From Syntrophaceae bacterium (GTDB taxonomy: Bacteria > Desulfobacterota > BSN033 > UBA1163): a DNA stretch of 64,000 nt. A model generated the notes under the pieces. The model was not told the DNA's origin. It saw only the letters and a list, made by a program, of their open reading frames with translations, and made no database searches. Made by a program: the position numbers and the translations under genes. The DNA is taken from positions 24,934 to 88,933 of the forward strand of contig JACAEV010000100.1 of the NCBI GenBank assembly GCA_013388645.1. Direction: 5' to 3'. Shown here piece after piece: positions 34,033 through 48,415 of the stretch (positions are counted from its first letter, which is position 1; each line of letters opens with the position of its first letter).

Positions 34033-34287
34033 TTATTCTTCAAAATGCGGAGTTTCCGCCTTGCTTGCCACGACTTTCCCTGTAGCCGTGTCAAGAACGT
34101 AATACCCACTGCGAGCTTTGACTCCCTCTGCCTCGACCGCCCATGCAGAGATCTGATACCTTCCTTTCTTTTCATCTTCAGAAACTGCCAAAGCCGCCTT
34201 TGAAGAAAAGACGTTGTTTAATAGGTTGAGGAGAAGCAGTATCGAAACGATTCCTAAGAAGACTTTTGTTATTCGATCGGTTTCCAT
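34033..34287 (-). CDS. Small N-anchored or secreted protein (84 aa), hypothetical
   Basis: AAGGGAGG RBS. N-terminal hydrophobic helix FLGIVSILLLLNLL. Lies immediately downstream of the Cyc2-like gene. Confidence 0.45.
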   Translation of the reverse strand: METDRITKVFLGIVSILLLLNLLNNVFSSKAALAVSEDEKKGRYQISAWAVEAEGVKARSGYYVLDTATGKVVASKAETPHFEE

Positions 34288-34379
34288 AAGTGACCTCCCT
34301 TTTTGTTATACATTTTTTTCCTTCATTCAATGTTCCTTTTTCAGCTCTGACATCCAAACCATTGCCCTACCTTCAATGA

Positions 34380-35759
34380 TCAAAACATGAACCAAAGCAG
34401 GAAATAGAGCGTGTTGTTGTCAGAAGCGTCCCGGCCAAACCCGTCATAGTTCGAATGAGAGCCGTTGAATTTGTTGTAAAGTGTATACTGCAGGGAACAT
34501 TTGAGTGAAAGAAAATTGGTAATTTCGAGTCTTTGATAGTCTAATTCGAAAATCAAACCGTTGCTGTTCGGGCTGCCCGTTCGACTCCCATCCGCGGGGC
34601 CCGGCGCATAGAGCAAGATGTCTTTATTTCCGGTGGTGGAAAAAAATCCGGCTGACCCGCCGAAATCACCGATCGGGCTCCGGTAGGTGTAATGGCCGTG
34701 AATTTTGAAGGTATTCAAGTGGCCTGACTTCTTTGCGGTATTTCCTAAATCAAAACTCGCATTCCAATCTTGATACTCATGAATCCAGGTTGAATGCAAT
34801 GTAAAGATATGGCTTTTCACAATGTATTGATACTGGGTATCGAGGCCGATATCCGTGAAACGATCCGTAGGACCATGATGCATTCCCTCAGGATAGATAT
34901 CGGCGGTGAGGCCAAAGGTCCCCAGGGATAAGTAATGCTTTCTCCACTGTCGCTGGAGGACCAGGCGCCAATAGGGAACGATACCGTCCGTCTCCATATC
35001 CACGGTCGTGCCAGCGCCCAAGATTTTTGTGATCCCGTGGTCCGTCGTCCTGTACAAAGCCCCTCCCGCATAGATCATGTTATTCCAGAACACATAGGCT
35101 CCCATTCCGCCTACTTGCTGGTCTAAGGTCCCATCAATAATCGTACTTGCGGCAGGCGTTGGGGCGATGGGCGATGCAGCGTACGGGAAGCCGAAGGCGG
35201 GCGTACTGTTCCATACATCCTGGAGGGTCGGACTATTGTTGACCGTCACGCCATAGATCAGCTGCTTATTCCAAAGAGTCGTCGTATTTGCATATCGGAT
35301 ATCCGTCATATCCAGCATGACATCATTTTCTGCCCCGTCGAAGGTTCCCTGAACGAAAGCCCCAAGATGCCTGTAGATTCGTCCTCCATAGTACAAGCTC
35401 ATCTCTTGAGGTAAGCTCAGGACATTGTTATCCGTCGAGGTGACATGAGTGGCCCAATTGTCCTCGATCGATTTTCGCGGCAAGTCCTTCTTCAAATGGG
35501 TAAAAGAGAGTTGCACCAGACCAGCGAGGGGTGGCGGAAACTCATATGGTTTAGTGCTCTTGCTGATGGAATAACCTGTCAATTTAAAAAATCGTCCAAA
35601 AGGGGTGAGCTCAGGCCACATGGTATGGCAGGTCGTACAGGACATACCCGTTTGACGCGCGAAACTTGGCAAGGCATGGGTGTTGGGAGGTAAAAATAGC
35701 ATCCATCCCCCAATTAAGACCCATCCGATCCATGTAGTTCTTAACATCTTCCATAACAT
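34380..35759 (-). CDS. Cyc2-like fused monohaem cytochrome c / outer-membrane beta-barrel porin
   Basis: Signal peptide. A single CTTCH haem motif about 15 residues into the mature protein. The remaining ~400 residues show alternating amphipathic, aromatic-rich strands and end ...LYFLLWFMF (C-terminal Phe), as outer-membrane barrels do. Length 459 aa matches the Cyc2 family. Confidence 0.6.
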   Translation of the reverse strand: MLWKMLRTTWIGWVLIGGWMLFLPPNTHALPSFARQTGMSCTTCHTMWPELTPFGRFFKLTGYSISKSTKPYEFPPPLAGLVQLSFTHLKKDLPRKSIEDNWATHVTSTDNNVLSLPQEMSLYYGGRIYRHLGAFVQGTFDGAENDVMLDMTDIRYANTTTLWNKQLIYGVTVNNSPTLQDVWNSTPAFGFPYAASPIAPTPAASTIIDGTLDQQVGGMGAYVFWNNMIYAGGALYRTTDHGITKILGAGTTVDMETDGIVPYWRLVLQRQWRKHYLSLGTFGLTADIYPEGMHHGPTDRFTDIGLDTQYQYIVKSHIFTLHSTWIHEYQDWNASFDLGNTAKKSGHLNTFKIHGHYTYRSPIGDFGGSAGFFSTTGNKDILLYAPGPADGSRTGSPNSNGLIFELDYQRLEITNFLSLKCSLQYTLYNKFNGSHSNYDGFGRDASDNNTLYFLLWFMF

Positions 35760-35806
35760 TTTATCCTCACCCCTTTCCTAAGGCTTCACACTCTTAGCAA
35801 TGCCCT

Positions 35807-36163
35807 CTATGAGCCAGGTTTAAAGGCATGAGCTATGTAGTCCATGACAGCCTTAATCTGATCAGGGTTTAGGCCCATGGGCGGCATCATCCCATGGCCG
35901 TGCTCGATGGTATTGGTAATTATTTTATTGATGTCTTTCTGCTTCCAGAACTTAGGGTCCGTGAAGCTGGCTGGTTTAGGATTAAAGGCAGCGGCAGCCG
36001 GGCCATTACCATTTCCTTTTGGACCATGGCACATCTGACACTTATTCTCATAAATGTCTTTTCCCCGCTGGACCTCACTTGCCTCAATTCCCTTGACGTT
36101 CCAGGCCGTAAATCCTAATCCCAGGACCATTCCTGCGGCGAAAAAAACAATCATTTTCTTCAC
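35807..36163 (-). CDS. Class I monohaem cytochrome c (periplasmic)
   Basis: GTG start with AAGGAGG 7 nt upstream. Signal peptide, CQMCH haem site and distal HGHGMMPPMG Met-ligand region. 118 aa. Confidence 0.8.
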   Translation of the reverse strand: MKKMIVFFAAGMVLGLGFTAWNVKGIEASEVQRGKDIYENKCQMCHGPKGNGNGPAAAAFNPKPASFTDPKFWKQKDINKIITNTIEHGHGMMPPMGLNPDQIKAVMDYIAHAFKPGS

Positions 36164-36176
36164 AAGGTTACCTCCT

Positions 36177-38633
36177 TTATACGGGTATCCTTTCTGAGAC
36201 CCCTACCTTGAACTCCTCCCATTGAACGTAAAGCATCCCGTTTTCTACCTTGAATGGCAGCGTATCAAGGGGGCGGGGTGCTGGCCCTTTAAGCACTTTT
36301 CCATCGATGGAATAAACACTCCCATGGCAGGGACACGCAAAGGTTTTGCTTTGTGGGTCCCAGTCATAATGGCAGCCAAGATGTGGACAGATTGGAGAAT
36401 AGACGGCAAACCCCGTGACCCCCGAGGACGATCGTTTGATGATCCAAACGCTATGTGTGACCGTCTCCATTAGATAAGCATCCTGGGTGTTGAAAGAAAA
36501 ATCTATATTTTGAGGTTTCCCTGTAGGCAATGAATGGATATCCGCTATTTTAGTCCAGGTAAGTTTTTTTCTTTGAAAGGATGGGCCAATCAAATTTCCG
36601 ATAAGAGGAATCCCAATAGCCAAGGTGATCAGAGAGCTTAACCCTCCTATCATCATCTTCAGAAAACTGCGGCGTGTTGTTTCGTGCGTCCCAGCCGAGT
36701 GGCTCCCTTTTTTCGTGTCTGAACCGGAGGGAGTTCCTTTCGCCTTCACTCCCTTCAGAATCCAAAGTCCACCAATGACAATGATAAAGGTCGCTGCGAC
36801 CAGCCAGAAGAAGAGATGGGGTTGAAGGCCGGGACGGACGAGCTTGGCCCGATCCACTCCGTTCAGCCACAGGATATAGGCTTCTATATTTGCGATGGTT
36901 GGCTGGTTAAGCGAGTTAGAATCTCCAAAGGGAAGCATCTGTAGAGCTGGATTCGGACCTTCTGGTCTTGAACCATGCAGGATAAAACGGTCGATGTTAT
37001 CCGTAAAAGTTCGAGGGTCTTTGTTGAAAAGCTCTGGATCAATTGGATTGAGGGGGGGAACGGTTCCATCCTCTGAGCCTGGATTTGGAACTTTACCCGT
37101 TCCTTTTGGACCGTGGCAGGCTTCACAGTGTTGTTGGAACAGAATGGCTCCTCGACCAAAACTTCCGATAACATTTGCCGCTGGCCCCGGCTGTCCGTGA
37201 GGGCCGACGATTAATTTTTCCTGTATGGTCATTGTGGCCATCTGTGGCATAGGAGGGACTGCTGAAGAAGATTTGCCTGAAGCTAAATTTTGTAGATAAT
37301 CGACGATCTCATTGAGCTGATGGTCGGTGGCTGAGGAAAAAGCGGGCATGATCGTATTCAGGTTGTGTTTTTTCGGATCTCGAATCTGGGTGATCAACCA
37401 TTGTCGCGATTTACCTTTTAACGATTCGGAAGATAATTCAGGCCCCACCGTACCTCCTTGACCATTTACCCGGTGGCATCGAATGCAGCCCATGGAATGG
37501 AAGAGTTGAGCCCCCTTCGAGGCACTTTCTGATATTTGAGTAGGTGGGATGGTTTGGGATAATGGAGTCTGAGAACTTGCGGTTTCTGGTTTGCTGAAAT
37601 ATCCTACAACGGCAAGGATAATCACCCATGCAACAAAAATCAGGTAACCTGACATTGTGATCGGGCGGCGAGATGGGTTTCGCTCTGGGGTTCGATCTAT
37701 GAAAGGAAGAAATACGAGGAGTAACGTGACGAAAAGGGGAATCCCGACTGTACCAATGGGTTCAAGCCTTCCGGGAAAGGCTTTCAGGGTTTGATACAAA
37801 AAGAGAAAATACCACTCCGGTTTAGGAACATAGGAGGTATCCATAGGATTCTTGGGACCAGCAATAGGGGTGCGAATATATGCGGCAAGCCCCACTAAGA
37901 TCACAAAGACAAACGTAATGACTACCGTATCTTTAAAAACCTGATCTGGCCAGAAACGCCCGATGATTTTGCGTTTCTCTTGATTCCAGGGACCTGAAAT
38001 TCCAGATTGGCGAAAAGCGATGATATGTAAGATCACTAAAACGAAAACGATTCCAGGAAGAATCGCTACATGGAGCACAAAGAACCGGGAGAGCGTCATC
38101 TGTCCAAGGTTTGGACCACCGCGCAACAAATTTGTTGCCAGATCACCTAAGTAGGGCACCGTACCTGCCATACTGGTACCTACTTCGACCTCCCAATAAC
38201 CTCTTTGGTCCCATGGGAGAACCGGTCCTGTGAATCCCAGCGCCAGCGTACATATCAAGAGTCCTACACCGAGCAGCCATGTCAGTTGCCGTGGTTGTTT
38301 GTAAGCGCCCCAGATAAAGACACGGGACATGTGAAGTCCCACCAGAATGATCATGGCAGCTGCTCCCCAGTAATGGAGCCCATGGATCAACCAACCAAAA
38401 GGAACTTCGATACGCAGGTAATTCAGGCTATCGTAGCCATGACTGATCGTAGGAACAAAGTAGAAGAGCTGCCACAAACCTGTGATGACTTGAATGAGAA
38501 AAGTCGTTAAGACCGAACTGCCGAAGATGTAAACAAAGCTATCTCCTCCGGGCATTTCCTCTTCAAGGCCTAAACGAATCAATCCATTAAGAGGCCAACG
38601 CTCATTAATCCAACGCATCACACGTGAAACCAT
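36177..38633 (-). CDS. Single-polypeptide cytochrome bc complex: cytochrome b6 plus subunit IV, dihaem cytochrome c and Rieske iron-sulfur protein in one frame
   Basis: There is no stop codon across the whole ORF. Bis-His pairs HYWGAAAMIILVGLH and HVAILPGIVFVLVILH, and the PEWYFLFLYQ motif. Two CxxCH (CIRCH, CEACH) with MPAF / MLPFG ligands. An extra TM helix, then a TRRSFLK twin-arginine-like motif, a TM anchor and Rieske boxes CPHLGC...CPCHGS. The track ORF starts at a TTG at 38654. The ATG at 38633 (MVSRVMRWINERWPLNG) lies 18 nt after the S10 stop and is the more likely start. Confidence 0.8.
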   Translation of the reverse strand: MVSRVMRWINERWPLNGLIRLGLEEEMPGGDSFVYIFGSSVLTTFLIQVITGLWQLFYFVPTISHGYDSLNYLRIEVPFGWLIHGLHYWGAAAMIILVGLHMSRVFIWGAYKQPRQLTWLLGVGLLICTLALGFTGPVLPWDQRGYWEVEVGTSMAGTVPYLGDLATNLLRGGPNLGQMTLSRFFVLHVAILPGIVFVLVILHIIAFRQSGISGPWNQEKRKIIGRFWPDQVFKDTVVITFVFVILVGLAAYIRTPIAGPKNPMDTSYVPKPEWYFLFLYQTLKAFPGRLEPIGTVGIPLFVTLLLVFLPFIDRTPERNPSRRPITMSGYLIFVAWVIILAVVGYFSKPETASSQTPLSQTIPPTQISESASKGAQLFHSMGCIRCHRVNGQGGTVGPELSSESLKGKSRQWLITQIRDPKKHNLNTIMPAFSSATDHQLNEIVDYLQNLASGKSSSAVPPMPQMATMTIQEKLIVGPHGQPGPAANVIGSFGRGAILFQQHCEACHGPKGTGKVPNPGSEDGTVPPLNPIDPELFNKDPRTFTDNIDRFILHGSRPEGPNPALQMLPFGDSNSLNQPTIANIEAYILWLNGVDRAKLVRPGLQPHLFFWLVAATFIIVIGGLWILKGVKAKGTPSGSDTKKGSHSAGTHETTRRSFLKMMIGGLSSLITLAIGIPLIGNLIGPSFQRKKLTWTKIADIHSLPTGKPQNIDFSFNTQDAYLMETVTHSVWIIKRSSSGVTGFAVYSPICPHLGCHYDWDPQSKTFACPCHGSVYSIDGKVLKGPAPRPLDTLPFKVENGMLYVQWEEFKVGVSERIPV

Positions 38634-38650
38634 GTATCGTTCTTTCAAGT

Positions 38651-40222
38651 TCAATCCTTGATTTTAGGGATAGCCTCTCGAAAAAAGTTGGCCACATCGG
38701 TCTTTAGTTTTTTCAAGGCTGGCAGATGAGTATACATCTGATGCCCTGCTTCATAAAAGGTTAGAGTTAGGTTCTTACGCAACTTCGCATCGAGACCAAG
38801 ATGGTTTGCGGCATATTTCGATGCAAAAAAAGGCGTATCAAGATCATAGTAGCCGCTTGCAATGAGGACTTTTAAATATTTATTTTCGCTCATCGCCTGG
38901 TGTAAAGTGTCTACGACATTCACGTATCCCAATCCTCCGGTGTCGGAGCTCCAATTCCAGGATTCGTTGACTTTCATAGAGAGAATTTCGTAAGGGAGAT
39001 CGGTTTCGTACTTAAGCTCTTTCCTCACATAATCGTTCCAGGTCGCCATGAGAAGGCCTGTCACCAAAAACACACTGGGGTCCTCAATGAAGTCCTGAGG
39101 GGTATATTTGCCTGTAATCCGAGAGTCTAAGACACCGATCCGGAGATCCTCCTGGCGAAGCAACTCTTTTGTAAAATCACCCCGGCTGATACGTAATTTG
39201 GATTTCTGTATGGACGTTTCAGAAAGACCTGTATATCTCGTTAACTTTTCAACAACTCTATTTCGTTCGGGCTCTGAGAGGAGATCCCCTTTCGCCAAAG
39301 CGACTAAATATTCATTCAATGCAAATTCTTCTGCTTCATCCATCGTTTTTTGAAAATTTGATTGGAATTCAGGCGATAACTTATGATGGTACCAGGCTGT
39401 TGTGGCATAGGTAGGCAGAAACAGGATGTAGGGTAAATCATTTCCCGCGGTAAAAACGATGGTCTGAAAGTTGAGAGCTTCTGAGATTAAAATCAGTCCA
39501 TTGAGATTGATAGCCAGTTTGTTTTGAAGATAGCTTGAAAGGCCGGCTGCCCTTGTTGTTCCATAACTTTCGCCCGCTATAAACTTTGGGGAAAGCCAGC
39601 GATTGTATTTTGTTAGATAAAGTCGAATGAATGCACCAACCGATTGAATATCCTCCTTTACGCCCCAGAACTTCTTCGGATCTTCGCCGGAGGCGGCACG
39701 ACTATAACCTGTACCAACCGGATCGATAAAGACAAGATCTGTGATATCGAGCCAAGTATATGCATTCTCAATCAATCGATATGGAGGAGGCAAAGCTTCC
39801 TTTTCCTCCTTCAAAAGCATACGTTTGGGGCCAAGGGCGCCAAGATGCAGAAAGACCGAGGCTGCCCCTGGCCCGCCATTAAACGCAAAAGTAATTGGAC
39901 GTTGAGATTTATCTTCCTCTTCATCTTTGATATAAGAGGTGAAAAATATGGTTGCCCTGAGTTTTCCTGCTTCATCTTTCATCGGCAGGTAACCAGCAAA
40001 TGCCTTATAATTCAGAGTCATTCCATTAATCTTGATAGAGTGATGGGTAATTGAAATTTTTTCTTCAGGTGGTTCTTTTGCCTTTGATTTGTCACGAGGT
40101 TGTGGTAAACTCTCGGGTGTTTCCAAAGCAACGAACAGATTTTTCGTTGCCTGACAGGCACCTAAAGAAAGGACACCGATGAGCAGGCTTGCAACCAAGG
40201 AAATGGAGACAATTTTTTTCAT
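38651..40222 (-). CDS. S10-family serine carboxypeptidase lipoprotein
   Basis: Lipobox LSLGAC. FAFNGGPGAASVFLHLGALGP and the GESYGT catalytic-Ser motif. Stop overlaps the bc ORF. Confidence 0.8.
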   Translation of the reverse strand: MKKIVSISLVASLLIGVLSLGACQATKNLFVALETPESLPQPRDKSKAKEPPEEKISITHHSIKINGMTLNYKAFAGYLPMKDEAGKLRATIFFTSYIKDEEEDKSQRPITFAFNGGPGAASVFLHLGALGPKRMLLKEEKEALPPPYRLIENAYTWLDITDLVFIDPVGTGYSRAASGEDPKKFWGVKEDIQSVGAFIRLYLTKYNRWLSPKFIAGESYGTTRAAGLSSYLQNKLAINLNGLILISEALNFQTIVFTAGNDLPYILFLPTYATTAWYHHKLSPEFQSNFQKTMDEAEEFALNEYLVALAKGDLLSEPERNRVVEKLTRYTGLSETSIQKSKLRISRGDFTKELLRQEDLRIGVLDSRITGKYTPQDFIEDPSVFLVTGLLMATWNDYVRKELKYETDLPYEILSMKVNESWNWSSDTGGLGYVNVVDTLHQAMSENKYLKVLIASGYYDLDTPFFASKYAANHLGLDAKLRKNLTLTFYEAGHQMYTHLPALKKLKTDVANFFREAIPKIKD

Positions 40223-40235
40223 CGATCTTAATCTC

Positions 40236-41735
40236 CTATCTCACCACCACTTGAACATTGCCCATATTTCCACTTCGATGGTCAAGGGCGAGCAACGTAA
40301 TTCTCTGATCAGGTTTTAATGCACTCACCAACTGTATGAAAGCTTCCACCCCTTTAATCGGTTGGTTGTTAATCTCCAAGATCATATCTCCTACCTCAAA
40401 ACCAGCCTTCCTAAGGGGACCCTTGGCTTCGAGCTGGTTGATCATGACTCCCTGACCCGCATCCAATCCATATTTCTCAGCCTCCTGTGGTGAGATCGCC
40501 CGAACCTCTGCCCCTAAACGTCCCTTCACGTAGGTAGCTAAGATTTTTGTCGATTCCTCCAGATTCCCCAATTTGATAGTTAGTTCCACTTTTTTACCAT
40601 TCCTTAAGACCGTTACCTTCGTCTCACTGCCAATGGGTGTGTTCGCCACCTCATTTCGAAACGTTCCAGAGTCAGGGATCTCTTTACCGCGATAAGCAAC
40701 CACTACATCATTTTTCTTTAGTCCTCCTTTTTCTGCCGGACCTCCCTTGACTACATCAGCGACGAGCGCCCCTTTCGTTGTCTCTACATGAACGCTCTTG
40801 GCTAAATCCGGAGTTAAATCCTGTATACTGATACCCAGCCACCCTCGCTCCACTTTTCCATGGGTAATGAGCTGTTTCGCCACATGAAGGGCCATATTAC
40901 TGGGGATGGTGAAACCAATCCCCTCGAAACCTCCAGACTCTGAAGCAATCGCAGCATTCACACCAATCACCTCTCCTCTAAGGTTCAACAAAGGCCCCCC
41001 ACTGTTTCCTGGATTGATGGCCGCATCCGTCTGTAAGAAGTCCTGGTAACTGCTTGGGTCTGTGATGCCCTGTCGATGTTTAGCACTGATGATACCCTGT
41101 GTAACGGTCTGGTCTAAACCCCGAGGATGTCCAATGGCCACCACCCATTCTCCTACTTCCACTTTGTCGGAATCCCCGAAGGTCACAGTTGGGAGAGGTT
41201 CTTTGGCCGAAATCTGGATCACAGCCAGGTCTGTCTTAGAATCAGTTCCCACCAGTTTTGCCGGATACCTATTCCCATCCGAGAGCAGCACTTCGATCTT
41301 GGTTGCCCCTCCTGCGACATGATGATTCGTCAGGATATGACCCTGAGTATCTATAATCATCCCAGTTCCCAATCCTTTCAGTTCCCTTTTAAACTTACGA
41401 GGCATTTTAGGAATATCAAAGAATCTCCTAAAAAAAGGGTCACTTTCAAAGGGCAGCAAAGGATTCATGACCTCTTGCCTCTCCGTTACTTCAATGTGCA
41501 CGACCGCCGGAATTGCCTGCTTAGCCACTCTTATGATGCCGGTGCTCAAATCGATAGATCCTTTTGAACCCTCTGAAGTTTGCCCAGTTACCGATTCTAC
41601 AAACGGTTTCTTGGCTTGCTCCTCCTGCTTCGCACATGCGGTAACCGTTAAGAAAGTGAATGCGGTCCCCAAGGTTAAAACCATTAGAAGTAAGATATAG
41701 CCCCAATGATGCGATCTGCGAATACTGTTTAACAT
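40236..41735 (-). CDS. htrA: DegP/HtrA periplasmic serine endoprotease with two PDZ domains
   Basis: Catalytic-triad contexts TNHHVAGGA, DLAVIQ and GNSGGPLLNLRGEVIGVNAAI. Two PDZ segments (ISIQDLTPDLAKS..., GVMINQLEAKGPLRKAGFEVGDMIL). Confidence 0.9.
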   Translation of the reverse strand: MLNSIRRSHHWGYILLLMVLTLGTAFTFLTVTACAKQEEQAKKPFVESVTGQTSEGSKGSIDLSTGIIRVAKQAIPAVVHIEVTERQEVMNPLLPFESDPFFRRFFDIPKMPRKFKRELKGLGTGMIIDTQGHILTNHHVAGGATKIEVLLSDGNRYPAKLVGTDSKTDLAVIQISAKEPLPTVTFGDSDKVEVGEWVVAIGHPRGLDQTVTQGIISAKHRQGITDPSSYQDFLQTDAAINPGNSGGPLLNLRGEVIGVNAAIASESGGFEGIGFTIPSNMALHVAKQLITHGKVERGWLGISIQDLTPDLAKSVHVETTKGALVADVVKGGPAEKGGLKKNDVVVAYRGKEIPDSGTFRNEVANTPIGSETKVTVLRNGKKVELTIKLGNLEESTKILATYVKGRLGAEVRAISPQEAEKYGLDAGQGVMINQLEAKGPLRKAGFEVGDMILEINNQPIKGVEAFIQLVSALKPDQRITLLALDHRSGNMGNVQVVVR

Positions 41736-46378: not shown

Positions 46379-47284
46379 CTATTCTTTCCAGTAGGGTCGC
46401 TGGCCAAAAAAACTGTAGGCATTTCTTGCCCATTTCAAATTGTTCATATCCGTATACTCATTAAAGTTGGGGGCAGATGACAGTCGGTCTCCAGTGGTAT
46501 TGAGAATAAAAGTATTACCACTCACGGAAAGTTCACCGAAGGGAACTGCAACCTGCGAATCGCCCCTTCTTGGGACTTTATCCAGAACTAAGAAGGCGAC
46601 ACGCCCACCTTTGGAATCGATTATTAAATCATCGATCCTTGCTGACACGCCTCCATCCTTAGACTGTACCCTGGCACCCATTAGTACCGGGGCCGTTTTC
46701 CCCATAAGGAGAGATTCTAATATGGAAGGTCTGGCGGTTCGGTAAGACACAATATCCGGAGGTACTGTTCTTCCCTCAGTCCAATAGGGCCTCTGTCCAT
46801 AGAAACTGTAAAGGGAATCAGCCCAGAGAGGATCAATTGTCGCTGGGATAGTGGATAATCCAACGATGCTCCTATCCCGATAAAGTAGGTATGCGTAAGG
46901 ATCCTCATAAGGGGTCGAGGGTATTGAAGTATATTGATCACCGAAGTTGAGCTGGAAGGTATTCTCCCCCATTCTTTCAAGTGCACCAAAAGGAGCAGCT
47001 GCGAACTCCGCCCCAAAACCCTGGACCCCGGAAAGAATCACTAGTGAGATATGTCCATCGGTTCTGTCAATCATGAGATCATCAATTTGGCCTAATTCTA
47101 CGCCCAATGGGCTATAGACTCTGTGCCCGATAAACCAACTGGCTTCAAATGTTTCCCAAGCGGTCGGCTGCGACATGGCTCCTGCTTCGCCTTTGATCCA
47201 CTCTTTGGCAAATACCTTACTGCTACCAAAGAGAGCTAAGCCGAAAATGGAAATCACCATTAAGATTTTAACTTTCTTGTTCAT
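46379..47284 (-). CDS. Secreted tandem-PRC-barrel protein, paralogue 1
   Basis: Signal peptide MNKKVKILMVISIFGLALFGSSKVFA. Two PRC-barrel-like segments (LGQIDDLMIDRTDGHISLVILS; ARIDDLIIDSKGGRVAFLVLD). Both halves end ...FFGQRPYW. Confidence 0.7.
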   Translation of the reverse strand: MNKKVKILMVISIFGLALFGSSKVFAKEWIKGEAGAMSQPTAWETFEASWFIGHRVYSPLGVELGQIDDLMIDRTDGHISLVILSGVQGFGAEFAAAPFGALERMGENTFQLNFGDQYTSIPSTPYEDPYAYLLYRDRSIVGLSTIPATIDPLWADSLYSFYGQRPYWTEGRTVPPDIVSYRTARPSILESLLMGKTAPVLMGARVQSKDGGVSARIDDLIIDSKGGRVAFLVLDKVPRRGDSQVAVPFGELSVSGNTFILNTTGDRLSSAPNFNEYTDMNNLKWARNAYSFFGQRPYWKE

Positions 47285-47500: not shown

Positions 47501-48415
47501 CTAAAAATCTTGAGCCTCTCCTCCCCAGCGATAGGGGTCGAGGCCTCCAGTGTACCCTCTTACCGTCCAGTAAGGTTGTTGGCCAAAGAACCTGTAAACG
47601 TTTTCGGCATATCCGCGCTTGTTCATATCCGAATGGTGAAAGCTCGGTGCCGATGCCAGATGATTTCCCGTAACGTTGAGAGTAAAGGTTTTTAGACTCG
47701 CTCTGTTCAAAACATCGAAGGGAACTGCAACCAAATGGTCGCCTCTGCCCTTGACATGCGAAAGGACTAAAAGGATGATCTGTCCATTTGAAGAGTCAAT
47801 AGTAAAGTCGCTGACCCTTGCGCTGACATTGCCTTCAGTTGCTTGGACTTCGGTGCCAATCAATTGGGTTCTCAGGTAAAAGTCAGTGGTTGATGGCGTA
47901 CTTTCTCCCTGTATCCAGTAGGGGCCTCCTATCCCGTAGGTTCGGTAAATCTCAGCAACCCAGTTAGGGTCGATTGGTTGTGGAATGCTATAGAGAGGGG
48001 AATCTGTAGGGTACTGTCTCAGCAAATAGAGATCTGGATCCTCACGGTTGTTAACGGATGCTATTGCCATAATAGGGAACCGAACAGTAAAGGTGCGGTT
48101 ATCGTTTCTTTCAAGACATCCATAGGGAATCGCCACCTGATCGGCTCCGAATCCCGGGACATTGGAAAGAACGACAAGAGCCACGCGATCATTAGCCTGA
48201 TCGATGACGAGATTGCTGATTTGGCCTAGGTAATTGCCCGCACGACCATCGACACGCTGCCCTATCAACCAACTGGCTTCATATCTGTCCCGACCCATTG
48301 GCTGGTAAATGCCTCCTACTTCTGCTTTCTGCCATACTCCGGCAAAAGCACTACTGCCAAAAAGAACTAAGTTGAAAATGGAAATCAGCATTAAGAATCT
48401 AATTGTCTTGTTCAT
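47501..48415 (-). CDS. Secreted tandem-PRC-barrel protein, paralogue 2
   Basis: Same architecture as 46379..47284 (LGQISNLVIDQANDRVALVVLS; ARVSDFTIDSSNGQIILLVLS; ...FFGQQPYW). Confidence 0.7.
   Translation of the reverse strand: MNKTIRFLMLISIFNLVLFGSSAFAGVWQKAEVGGIYQPMGRDRYEASWLIGQRVDGRAGNYLGQISNLVIDQANDRVALVVLSNVPGFGADQVAIPYGCLERNDNRTFTVRFPIMAIASVNNREDPDLYLLRQYPTDSPLYSIPQPIDPNWVAEIYRTYGIGGPYWIQGESTPSTTDFYLRTQLIGTEVQATEGNVSARVSDFTIDSSNGQIILLVLSHVKGRGDHLVAVPFDVLNRASLKTFTLNVTGNHLASAPSFHHSDMNKRGYAENVYRFFGQQPYWTVRGYTGGLDPYRWGGEAQDF

Follow-up and report, generated by a model that had tools for sequence, protein, structure and literature searches.

Within the 64-kb window, by which we mean the whole stretch of DNA analysed, a string of minus-strand genes encodes a putative outer-membrane cytochrome-porin, a small cytochrome c, a fused bc complex, an S10 carboxypeptidase and an HtrA protease, just as the sequence-only reading had described them. 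The open reading frames and their Pfam matches agree with that description, and a further small open reading frame lies beyond the cytochrome-porin gene:

34380..35759, minus strand: Cyc2-type fused monohaem cytochrome-porin gene, 459 aa (ORF, ribosome-binding site, homologues, AlphaFold2 model)
35807..36163, minus strand: 118-aa class I monohaem cytochrome c (CQMCH) with an N-terminal hydrophobic segment (Pfam Cytochrom_C, 4e-14)
36177..38654, minus strand: 825-aa single-polypeptide bc complex (Pfam, NCBIfam, hydropathy, motifs)
38651-40222, minus strand: S10 serine carboxypeptidase (Pfam)
40236-41735, minus strand: HtrA protease (Pfam)
34033..34287, minus strand: 84-aa ORF with an N-terminal hydrophobic segment, 92 nt 3′ of the cytochrome-porin gene (ORF)

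The 459-aa ORF begins with an ATG that has a ribosome-binding site, GGGGTGAGG, 6-12 nt on its 5′ side, and its stop codon occupies 34380-34382. The 118-aa ORF begins with a GTG and has AAGGAGG upstream. The S10 gene overlaps the bc gene by 4 nt and is separated from the HtrA gene by 13 nt, and no terminator-like site above chance was found in the gene string. Together, the tight spacing, the ribosome-binding sites and the lack of a terminator above chance support the reading of a shared operon. The S10 and HtrA genes may be co-transcribed with the bc gene; their membership of the electron-transfer module is uncertain. The 84-aa ORF has no Pfam or NCBIfam match and does have a counterpart (71% identical, at the same position in locus L001; called as a gene in L080). 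The 459-aa, 118-aa and 825-aa products account for all c-type cytochrome genes of the window, in which no terminal oxidase, nitrate reductase or carbon-fixation gene is encoded and in which Rfam and tRNA scans found nothing.

The cytochrome-porin gene can be divided into the following parts, of which the second overlaps the first and third and the last lies within the barrel:

35673..35759, minus strand: signal-peptide-like N-terminus, residues 1-29 (hydropathy scan and model)
35607..35675, minus strand: Cyc2 signature, residues 29-51, the haem c attachment site and its flanks (translation compared with the PMC8406198 consensus)
35529..35672, minus strand: small helical cytochrome domain before the first barrel strand, residues 30-77 (model and conservation)
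34383..35528, minus strand: predicted 16-strand outer-membrane beta-barrel with a C-terminal Phe, residues 78-459 (AlphaFold2 model)
35115..35237, minus strand: long conserved loop between strands 5 and 6, residues 175-215 (secondary structure in the model and conservation)

At the N-terminus a hydropathy scan places the hydrophobic core at residues 11-22, and in the AlphaFold2 model residues 2-20 are helical and are followed by a low-confidence linker (24-30). Judged by eye and from hydropathy, cleavage is likely at T-H-A/L, after residue 29. CTTCH (residues 41-45) is the sole CxxCH of the product, and its first Cys would lie 12 residues into the mature protein; the signal peptide and single haem site of the sequence-only reading thus stand, whereas its distance of about 15 residues does not. 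Keffer et al. (2021, PMC8406198) describe a consensus, AXPXFAR[Q/K][T/Y]...CXXCH...PXL, that they call unique to Cyc2 and use as an inclusion filter in the form PXFAR[Q/K][T/Y]. The translation contains, in order, A-L-P-S-F-A-R-Q-T, G-M-S, C-T-T-C-H, T-M-W and P-E-L. The first of these elements (A29 to T37) fits the published sequence exactly; the three residues G-M-S lie between T37 and C41, where the publication has '5 amino acids upstream', and the counting may differ slightly. On the other side, H45-T-M-W-P49-E-L51 fits the published PXL, four residues past the CXXCH. With 459 aa, the product is also above the Cyc2 minimum length of 365 aa (PMC8406198), and its C-terminus reads ...FLLWFMF, with a terminal Phe.

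A word-indexed search returned more than 4,906 homologues of the 459-aa product at E<=1e-3; clustering at 50% identity gave 4,503 clusters at this threshold and 646 at E<=1e-30. In an alignment of 112 diverse sequences, C41, C44, H45 and L51 are invariant and P49 is kept in at least 90%. Exactly one CxxCH is present in 124 of 124 full-length representatives (those passing a length and N-terminal-CxxCH filter), and one is likewise present in all full-length loci. Since homologues are this numerous, C41, C44 and H45 are invariant and the single CxxCH is universal among the representatives, a chance open reading frame could be ruled out. The relatives are full-length cytochrome-porins and not unrelated monohaem periplasmic cytochromes, and both the CxxCH and its Cyc2-specific flanks are conserved across 79 loci from species-representative genomes and the 124 cluster representatives; on both counts the proposed Cyc2 assignment could have failed. 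Searches of Pfam, NCBIfam and PDB sequences with the single protein, a 16-sequence profile and 40 diverse members returned nothing relevant. Among named organisms, a Ralstonia megaplasmid ORF that carries the motif (46% identity, E 1e-100) and an Acidiphilium cryptum protein (38% identity, E 3e-90) both match over their full length, and both genera have been named as containing Cyc2 homologues (PMC8406198, PMC10715153); a homologue search seeded with the Acidiphilium protein reached Acetobacteraceae only. Records of the family are labelled 'hypothetical protein', with a few that say 'cytochrome C', and members of 10 proteobacterial-type clusters, from Robiginitomaculum and Rhizomicrobium, are annotated solely as 'hypothetical protein'. 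The closest relatives come from metagenome-assembled genomes labelled Thermodesulfobacteriota, Thermodesulfovibrionales, Aminicenantes and Geobacteraceae, none of them known iron oxidisers, and many relatives are found in Thermodesulfovibrionales genomes of this kind.

An AlphaFold2 model of the 459-aa product, built with 112 homologues, reached a pLDDT of 93.7 and a pTM of 0.88. As had been expected from the aromatic-rich strand character and terminal Phe, the model predicts a barrel, of 16 strands, preceded by a cytochrome domain with helices at 32-37, 41-44 and 53-60. Residues 21-60 are the best-conserved stretch of the protein (mean column conservation 0.62-0.74). Within the barrel, where conservation ranges from 0.28 to 0.66, residues 161-220 are among the higher values (0.55-0.63); they include the loop at 175-215, which we take to lie where 16-strand porins have their constriction loop L3 and which may line the pore or the haem pocket. 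In the 112 sequences, no His or Met available as a sixth haem ligand reaches 60% conservation, which counts against the model set out below. When the model was compared with solved structures, the best matches were 16-strand porins, including OprP and OprO. These proteins and general 16-strand porins differ from the 459-aa product in having neither haem domain nor CXXCH, and sequence identity to them is 8-13%. A complex of the MtrB/MtoB/PioB type, in which a 26-strand barrel encloses a separate decahaem cytochrome, was rejected on strand number and haem count; the likeness to MtoAB, PioAB and MtrAB is that of an outer-membrane barrel and c-type haem used for electron exchange with extracellular iron. 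Taken together, the exact match to the published motif, the predicted fold and indirect homology make it credible that the product is a Cyc2-family cytochrome-porin, as its architecture had suggested from the outset, and it is not an unusual addition to this already known family.

The 825-aa protein has the hallmarks of a Rieske/cytochrome b complex, namely cytochrome b with the PEWY quinol-site motif, a Rieske 2Fe-2S domain with CxH...CxxH boxes and c-type haem as acceptor. Pfam matches were found to Cytochrome_B (2e-46), Cytochrom_B_C (1e-13), Rieske (2e-9) and two Cytochrom_C domains, and the motifs PEWY (279), CIRCH (390), CEACH (510), CPHLGC (756) and CPCH (774) are present. Nine TM helices are predicted with a consistent topology: cytochrome b with seven of them, two cytochrome c domains, TM helix 8, a linker, TM helix 9 and the Rieske domain, the linker being placed in the cytoplasm and bearing an RR motif according to hydropathy and motifs. 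The same fused architecture occurs in 14 clusters (P0271-P0284). Relatives of the cytochrome b-dihaem c protein carry a FixO/CcoO oxidase domain as a fusion, which indicates that these operate forward.

We then compared gene order across the family, counting partner cytochromes by tblastn and ORF scans. In 36 of the 79 loci the gene immediately upstream, on the same strand, encodes a homologue of the 118-aa cytochrome c; nearly all of these are among the loci with 45% identity or more, and the closest contexts all have it. Elsewhere in the family that position is held by a dihaem c4-like protein, a c-type cytochrome or a HiPIP, depending on the clade. A Rieske/cytochrome b complex is directly upstream of the cytochrome c/Cyc2-like pair in 7 of the 10 closest contexts, which come from different samples. 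It is one polypeptide in three of these (this window, L001 and L091), and cytochrome b-c and Rieske are separate genes in the others (L084, L085, L093 and JGI 3300075153). The split in L084 is not due to a single stop codon, as three in-frame stops part the two genes. In the remaining three closest contexts (L081-83, L090, L092) the bc complex does not adjoin the pair, and the same holds for most of the distant ones; some distant members are flanked by separately encoded Rieske and cytochrome b genes (L007, L040, L042, L043, L045, L047). Several samples share the order bc, cytochrome c, Cyc2, also when the genes around it are different. Furthermore, between related genomes the module is far more divergent than its flanks, and for this reason it appears to have been exchanged as a cassette. 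The sequence-only reading had also taken the two proteases as consistent with envelope quality control for the module. The full order HtrA-S10-bc-cytochrome c-Cyc2 recurs in L085, and HtrA without S10 adjoins the pair in L081-83 and L037/L038, but most loci have neither gene and shared ancestry of gene order explains the recurrence in related genomes equally well, so this suggestion gains little.

The arrangement can be compared with several known systems. By its published description, Cyc2 of Mariprofundus ferrooxydans PV-1 (Cluster 1, PMC8406198) resembles the 459-aa product in its signal peptide, its single N-terminal CXXCH with AXPXFAR[Q/K][T/Y] upstream and PXL downstream, and its barrel of about 400 residues and 16 strands with structural matches to OprP/OprO. 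It differs in that the host here is not a known iron oxidiser and in that a conserved partner, the 118-aa monohaem cytochrome c, and a bc complex are encoded here in the same gene string. Cyc2/Cyc1 of Acidithiobacillus ferrooxidans likewise places an outer-membrane monohaem cytochrome-porin beside a periplasmic cytochrome c, with electrons tied to bc1 either uphill (petI) or forward to Fe3+ (petII) (PMC10654088, PMC7735108). This likeness extends to the Ralstonia homologue, which is followed by a dihaem c4-like gene. In A. ferrooxidans, however, cyc2 is grouped with cyc1, cup, coxBACD and rus, apart from the operons that encode bc1, whereas the string described here lacks rusticyanin and oxidase genes and includes the bc complex, as a single polypeptide; the partner cytochrome is monohaem here and dihaem there. 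Leptospirillum Cyt572/Cyt579 (Cluster 3) again pairs an outer-membrane Cyc2-family cytochrome with a small periplasmic cytochrome; in the tree, Cyt572 sits on a long branch, and its haem is unusual (PMC8406198). The best NCBIfam match of the 118-aa cytochrome is to cytochrome 579, with 32.5 bits against a cut-off of 280; being far under threshold, this match means that the protein does not belong to that family. Lastly, 'Ca. Mariimomonas ferrooxydans' (Thermodesulfovibrionia), from an anaerobic Nitrospirota lineage, has a Cluster 3-type Cyc2 that oxidises Fe(II) in E. coli (PMC13647500). By published description it shares the signal peptide, CXXCH and 16 strands, but no bc1, Rieske or cytochrome b is mentioned in that report, in contrast to the bc linkage here.

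These observations provide the basis for a model in which the Cyc2-family cytochrome-porin, the cytochrome c and the bc complex link dissolved extracellular iron to the quinone pool, with inward flow the more likely direction; we give this model about an even chance. We infer that, after export, haem is attached at CTTCH and residues 78-459 fold as a 16-strand barrel in the outer membrane, with the haem domain of about 48 residues at or inside its periplasmic mouth. A dissolved extracellular redox species, most probably Fe2+, would enter the narrow pore and exchange one electron with the haem. The 118-aa cytochrome c, co-transcribed in the model, would ferry the electron over the periplasm to the dihaem c domains of the Rieske/cytochrome b complex, making contact with both partners, and the complex would join the path to the quinone pool. 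Most likely, Fe(II) would be oxidised at Cyc2, and part of the electrons would be driven 'uphill' through a reversed bc complex that consumes proton-motive force, so that quinone is reduced and reducing power gained; the remaining electrons would pass to a terminal reductase encoded outside the 64-kb window. The sequence-only reading had proposed a complete conduit from outer to inner membrane. This idea gains support from the 7 of 10 contexts described above, while iron as the substrate and the direction of flow are what we infer.

There are arguments against the direction given in the model. Bc complexes usually pass electrons from quinol to cytochrome c, the thermodynamically normal mode for Rieske/cytochrome b complexes, and this counts against the inward reading. 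Electrons might also flow outward, which in our estimate is unlikely, from quinol through the bc complex and the 118-aa cytochrome c to a Cyc2-type terminal reductase and a dissolved high-potential acceptor such as soluble Fe(III). A bc complex encoded together with cytochromes in an operon that lacks an oxidase resembles a respiratory exit, and the CcoO-type oxidase fusions among relatives work forward. Distant members have genes for Rieske proteins, cytochrome b and pentahaem cytochromes c as neighbours (L007, L040-L047); the labels of these lineages include Geobacteraceae and Desulfuromonadales. There is also a precedent in anaerobic A. ferrooxidans, in which electrons pass from UQH2 through bc1 (PetII), CycA and rusticyanin/Cyc1 to Cyc2 and Fe3+ (PMC7735108) and Cyc2B and Cyc1B are induced (PMC7735108, PMC10715153). 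That precedent comes from pH 2, however, and free Fe3+ is essentially insoluble at neutral pH. Chelated Fe(III) would be bulky for an OprP-type pore, and a small pore with one haem suits aquo-Fe2+ over chelated or solid Fe(III) (both from the pore argument of PMC8406198). Electrons leaving a Rieske/cytochrome b complex would moreover be too high in potential to reduce Fe(III) oxides. Biochemically, in vitro assays of family members have all given Fe(II) oxidation, including that of the Thermodesulfovibrionia Cyc2 in E. coli (PMC8406198, PMC13647500); Keffer et al. warn that much of Clusters 2 and 3 lacks functional verification (PMC8406198). Based on these arguments we favour inward transfer from Fe(II). 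That the hosts are not known iron oxidisers, and that oxidase, nitrate reductase and carbon-fixation genes are missing from the window, count against Fe(II) oxidation.

The same architecture and partners might instead serve a substrate other than iron, such as Mn(II), Cu(I) or a small soluble redox shuttle, which we consider improbable. In the Nitrospirota family 'Ca. Manganitrophaceae', Cyc2 homologues have been put forward as possible Mn(II) oxidases (PMC9040806), and Keffer et al. allow that additional Cyc2 functions are possible (PMC8406198). The family is also present in many organisms without a link to iron oxidation, for example Methylocapsa, Nitrosospira and Ralstonia. Of the 79 loci, 13 have heavy-metal-type P-type ATPases in the vicinity of the gene, and YHS and SHOCT domain proteins are often among the neighbours; such ATPases and small domain proteins are, however, ubiquitous as neighbours, and their adjacency may be incidental. 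Another substrate has been shown for no family member, and Mn(II) oxidation would demand a far higher potential than a bc-linked anaerobe chain normally offers. Less probable still is a haem-bearing porin that senses or detoxifies periplasmic or extracellular Fe2+ or oxidants, with the bc complex adjacent but uncoupled: the contexts in which the bc complex does not adjoin (3 of the 10 closest and most distant ones) and the common stress-type neighbours (universal stress proteins, HtrA, FtsH, two-component systems) would suit such a role, but one clade after another encodes a periplasmic electron carrier next to the gene, which points to an electron-transfer chain, and the order bc, cytochrome c, Cyc2 survives changes of flanks.

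Cyc2 is the most widely used genetic marker of microbial iron oxidation; to our knowledge, its function has been verified for a handful of sequences only, and which partners it has in neutrophiles and anaerobes is mostly guesswork. The present family exposes an annotation gap, in that more than 4,500 clusters at 50% identity are without a Pfam or NCBIfam model. The locus adds to Cyc2 a clearly delimited subfamily, found in uncultured lineages of sediment and groundwater type, whose partners are given by gene order. We suggest tentatively, and with clearly less than even confidence, that in a clade of genomes labelled Thermodesulfobacteriota and relatives the Cyc2-type porin, the 118-aa cytochrome c and the bc complex form a self-contained, one-operon cassette leading from the outer membrane to the quinone pool; the bacteria that carry it are uncultured and probably anaerobic. 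If this is true, three proteins would suffice to connect the outer membrane to the quinone pool directly, which would depart from the known arrangements of cyc2 with an oxidase (the rus operon) or cyc2 alone and would offer anaerobic Fe(II) oxidation, or some new form of extracellular electron transfer, a minimal route. Because gene order spells out the partners, the destination and direction of Cyc2 electrons become testable with three genes.

Reading the ORFs, motifs and domains of the minus strand confirmed the genes and haem sites that the sequence-only reading had claimed, and placed the 459-aa cytochrome-porin ORF (the target) in a tightly packed run of six genes at 34033-41735 (-). The first four were assigned with Pfam and NCBIfam:

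40236-41735, minus strand: HtrA protease, 499 aa
38651-40222, minus strand: S10 carboxypeptidase, 523 aa
36177-38654, minus strand: Rieske/cytochrome b complex (bc) with cytochrome b, two cytochrome c domains and Rieske, 825 aa
35807-36163, minus strand: monohaem cytochrome c, 118 aa
34380-35759, minus strand: target ORF (Cyc2-like), 459 aa
34033-34287, minus strand: small ORF, 84 aa

From the HtrA gene to the target ORF, intergenic spacing ranges from a 4-nt overlap to 47 nt, and the 84-aa ORF lies 92 nt beyond the target. Good ribosome-binding sites precede the target and 118-aa cytochrome c genes; promoter-like and terminator-like sites did not exceed their frequency in shuffled sequence. 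Of all minus-strand genes in the 64 kb, only the bc fusion, the 118-aa cytochrome c and the target contain a CxxCH. The 84-aa ORF has a hydrophobic N-terminus, matches no Pfam or NCBIfam family and has a 71% identical counterpart at the same position in L001, one of the relatives' loci. Elsewhere the window carries genes of an ordinary chromosome (pentose-phosphate enzymes, P-type ATPases, MprF, M16 peptidases, a sigma-54 two-component system, a CLC channel and a PEP-utilising enzyme), and tRNA and Rfam scans of the 64 kb returned no match. The minus strand carries all 41 non-overlapping ORFs of at least 150 aa, and cumulative GC skew drops steadily over all 64 kb, so that the window seems to lie within one replication arm with its genes co-directional throughout.

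Of the features attributed to the target, the single CTTCH and terminal Phe were recovered, together with a signal-peptide-like N-terminus. Hydropathy places a hydrophobic segment at residues 11-22 and a likely cleavage site between A and L of T-H-A-L, after residue 29, so that the predicted mature protein starts L-P-S-F-A-R-Q-T-G-M-S-C-T-T-C-H-T-M-W-P-E-L. The Cyc2 family is described as having a single CXXCH, AXPXFAR[Q/K][T/Y] just upstream and PXL four residues downstream; the second motif, stated to be unique to Cyc2, served as an inclusion filter in the form PXFAR[Q/K][T/Y] (PMC8406198). The target matches all three exactly (A29-L-P-S-F-A-R-Q-T37, C41-T-T-C-H45 and P49-E-L51), its 459 aa compare with the 365-aa minimum of Keffer et al. 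(PMC8406198), and its C-terminal residue is Phe.

A word-indexed search returned more than 4,906 homologues at E<=1e-3, all unnamed or 'hypothetical' and none with a Pfam domain, and a profile run against 1.84 billion cluster representatives matched 4,503 clusters at E<=1e-3, of which 646 reached E<=1e-30. Forty diverse family members likewise matched no Pfam or NCBIfam model. Among 124 full-length representatives, picked by a CxxCH near the N-terminus, exactly one CxxCH was present in every case, [AG]-x-P-[SAL]-[FY]-[AS]-R-Q-T in nearly all and an aromatic C-terminal residue in most. The haem motif is kept in homologues: in an alignment of 112 sequences (A2; 31-77% identity to the target), C41, C44, H45, L51, G55 and F58 are invariant, and A29, P31, R35, Q36, T37, G38, P49, R56, K59, G62 and Y63 are conserved in at least 90%. 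Conservation along the target is highest in the haem domain, as described for Cyc2 by Keffer et al. (PMC8406198). Across residues 1-459, H45 of the CxxCH aside, no His or Met reaches 60% conservation in the 112 sequences, and the sixth haem ligand of the family is thus not obvious from sequence.

AlphaFold2 with 16 sequences gave a mediocre target model (pLDDT 57) in which 16 strands were already present; with 112 sequences the 16-strand model reached pLDDT 93.7 and pTM 0.88, bearing out the barrel expected by the earlier reading. A helical mini-domain (residues 31-77) precedes the barrel, whose strands are joined by turns of 2-7 residues at one end and by long loops at the opposite end, the pattern of porins, and the N-terminal haem domain and C-terminal Phe share one, periplasmic, side. 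Strands 5 and 6 are connected by a 41-residue loop (175-215) that is among the better-conserved barrel regions and presumably sits where constriction loop L3 of classical porins does. In a Foldseek search of the PDB, the model matched 16-strand porins, with the highest query TM-scores (0.47) for OprP (2o4v) and OprO (4rjw). These best structural matches are identical to those reported for Cyc2 of Mariprofundus ferrooxydans PV-1 (PMC8406198). The exact motifs and the predicted barrel support the claimed Cyc2 architecture; by all published sequence and structure criteria tested, the target, as read and modelled here, is a Cyc2-family protein.

Two plasmid matches, to Ralstonia and Acidiphilium, link the target indirectly to proteins already called Cyc2. 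By tblastn, it matches Ralstonia solanacearum megaplasmids over its full length (46% identity, E 1e-100), as well as Caballeronia and Paraburkholderia genes annotated 'cytochrome C'. The Ralstonia ORF carries A-V-P-A-F-A-R-Q-T-G-M-A-C-M-A-C-H, and a dihaem c4-like ORF comes next, which is the cyc2-cyc1 arrangement; Burkholderia, Ralstonia and Xanthomonas are heavily sampled genera in the Cyc2 set of Keffer et al. (PMC8406198). An Acidiphilium cryptum plasmid encodes a protein with 38% identity across 440 residues (E 3e-90), and Acetobacteraceae proteins retrieved from A. ferrooxidans Cyc2B are counted as Cyc2 homologues, their genes frequently lying beside one for a mono- or dihaem cytochrome c (PMC10715153). 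Gene order around the Cyc2-like gene is the same in L089 (CP084173.1, labelled an Acidithiobacillus ferrooxidans plasmid) and L086 (Acidiphilium cryptum pACRY03), and the two match the target with the same statistics (37.7% identity, E 1e-70); L089 is either an Acidiphilium-type plasmid gained by transfer or a mislabelled or contaminant record.

From 185,579 species-representative genomes we obtained 219 stretches encoding a target relative and examined 79 loci. The closest belongs to a MAG labelled Thermodesulfobacteriota (74% identity); other MAG labels are Thermodesulfovibrionales, Nitrospiraceae, 'delta proteobacterium', Aminicenantes, Geobacteraceae, Desulfuromonadales, Ca. Sulfobium, Desulfobulbaceae and Rokubacteria, and relatives at ~40% identity include Methylocapsa, Stellaceae, Nitrosospira and Thiobacillus, among others. 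No classical iron oxidiser was found among these 79 loci, the top set. The identical window protein occurs on a Logan assembly of run SRR10095362.

Of the 79 loci, 36 have a 118-aa cytochrome c homologue encoded co-directionally and immediately upstream of the Cyc2-like gene, and nearly all of these are at 45% identity or more. In 13 of the 79, including L005, L011, L012, L019, L031, L033, L035, L037, L042, L058 and L092, the Cyc2-like gene adjoins one encoding a ~240-aa membrane protein, DUF2231 fused to a monohaem cytochrome c at the C-terminus, which is a candidate for an alternative partner in the inner membrane. A twin-arginine HiPIP replaces the small cytochrome c in the alphaproteobacterial loci L056, L064, L065 and L079, and one annotated 'high-potential iron-sulfur protein' adjoins the gene on a Caballeronia plasmid (L087 3948-4259). 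Large multihaem cytochrome ORFs occur within a few kb in some Thermodesulfovibrionales, Nitrospirae and Ca. Sulfobium loci (L002, 496 aa, 8 CxxCH; L028, 514 aa, 8 CxxCH; L021, 507 aa, 6 CxxCH).

We inspected ten contexts of the closest clade (63-77% identity). Fused bc lies upstream of the cytochrome c/Cyc2-like pair in the window, L001 and L091; a cytochrome b-dihaem c gene and then a separate Rieske gene do so in L084, L085, L093 and JGI 3300075153; L090 has no adjacent bc and a different Rieske/cytochrome b operon 5 kb off; and L081-83 and L092 have none upstream. The order that underlay the earlier proposal of an electron conduit, with bc directly upstream of the pair, is thus retained in 7 of the 10. 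In the distant members L007, L040, L042, L043, L045 and L047, Rieske and cytochrome b genes lie on the opposite side, in most cases with a pentahaem cytochrome. Between L085 (3850-11380) and the window (34380-41735), HtrA and S10 are 88% and 87% identical, the bc proteins (split in L085, fused in the window) 65% and 51%, cytochrome c 53% and the Cyc2-like protein 65%. With 51-65% against 87-88% identity, the cassette is far more divergent than its flanks, and from these sequences it looks as if it was replaced between the related genomes. PRC-barrel proteins are encoded directly downstream of the Cyc2-like gene in L084 (11389-12330), L085 (12057-12827) and L091 (8408-10418), with the magnetosome-protein domain MamS_MamX on the L085 protein and in a separate adjacent ORF in L091; the window's PRC-barrel genes, 46379-47284 (-) and 47501-48415 (-), lie ~11 kb off and are weakly similar to these (29% identity).

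The gene at 36177-38654 (-) encodes the whole bc in one 825-aa polypeptide: a b6-like cytochrome b of 7 TM helices is followed by two cytochrome c domains, a further pair of TM helices and the Rieske domain. Fourteen protein clusters share this fusion (815-837 aa), and its predicted topology is self-consistent, with 7 TM helices, c domains outside, TM8 inward, an RR-containing linker, TM9 outward and Rieske outside. Commoner relatives are ~645 aa long and lack Rieske, which has a gene of its own immediately downstream. Cytochrome b-dihaem c relatives of 779-1067 aa carry a FixO/CcoO domain (PF02433; proteins P0285, P0286, P0351, P0367, P0370-P0373, P0375, P0377, P0380, P0385 and P0387) and are apparent fusions of a bc subunit with a cbb3-oxidase subunit.

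As modelled, the target is built like Cyc2: a domain with one haem joins a narrow pore of 16 strands, and only dissolved species could therefore reach the haem. A dissolved redox species would meet the haem through this pore, and electrons would pass from the cytochrome-porin to the small periplasmic cytochrome c and the dihaem c domains of bc, and from the Rieske/cytochrome b complex to the quinone pool; such a three-protein path, given by the conserved neighbours, is plausible. Direction and substrate are beyond settling by sequence; most likely, and the reading we favour, is Fe(II) oxidation with reverse ('uphill') flow through bc, which would require a terminal reductase encoded elsewhere in the genome. 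At neutral pH, Fe2+ is the sole small soluble ion. Every tested member oxidises Fe(II), namely A. ferrooxidans Cyc2, Leptospirillum Cyt572 and Cyc2 of PV-1 (PMC8406198), as does a Thermodesulfovibrionia Cyc2 expressed in E. coli (PMC13647500), and inward flow would parallel the dedicated petI bc1 operon of A. ferrooxidans (PMC10654088). The chief alternative keeps the chain but runs it forward, the cytochrome-porin serving as terminal reductase: this is the normal direction of bc complexes, has been proposed for A. ferrooxidans growing anaerobically on Fe3+ (PMC7735108), and fits both the anaerobic lineages and the existence of cytochrome b-dihaem c relatives fused to an oxidase subunit. Less likely are a substrate other than iron, such as the Mn(II) proposed in Ca. 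Manganitrophaceae (PMC9040806), and a non-respiratory role of the cytochrome-porin.

Cyc2 homologues were already known to be widespread, Nitrospirota included (PMC13647500, PMC9040806), and to occur in organisms not known for iron oxidation (PMC8406198); the target gene itself is therefore not a new kind. In a limited literature check we found no description of bc, monohaem cytochrome c and Cyc2 genes kept together on one strand, or of a bc fused as a single b-c-c-Rieske polypeptide. Our tentative suggestion, possible rather than probable, is that these genes may provide anaerobes with a conduit of three proteins to the quinone pool, self-contained and exchangeable.
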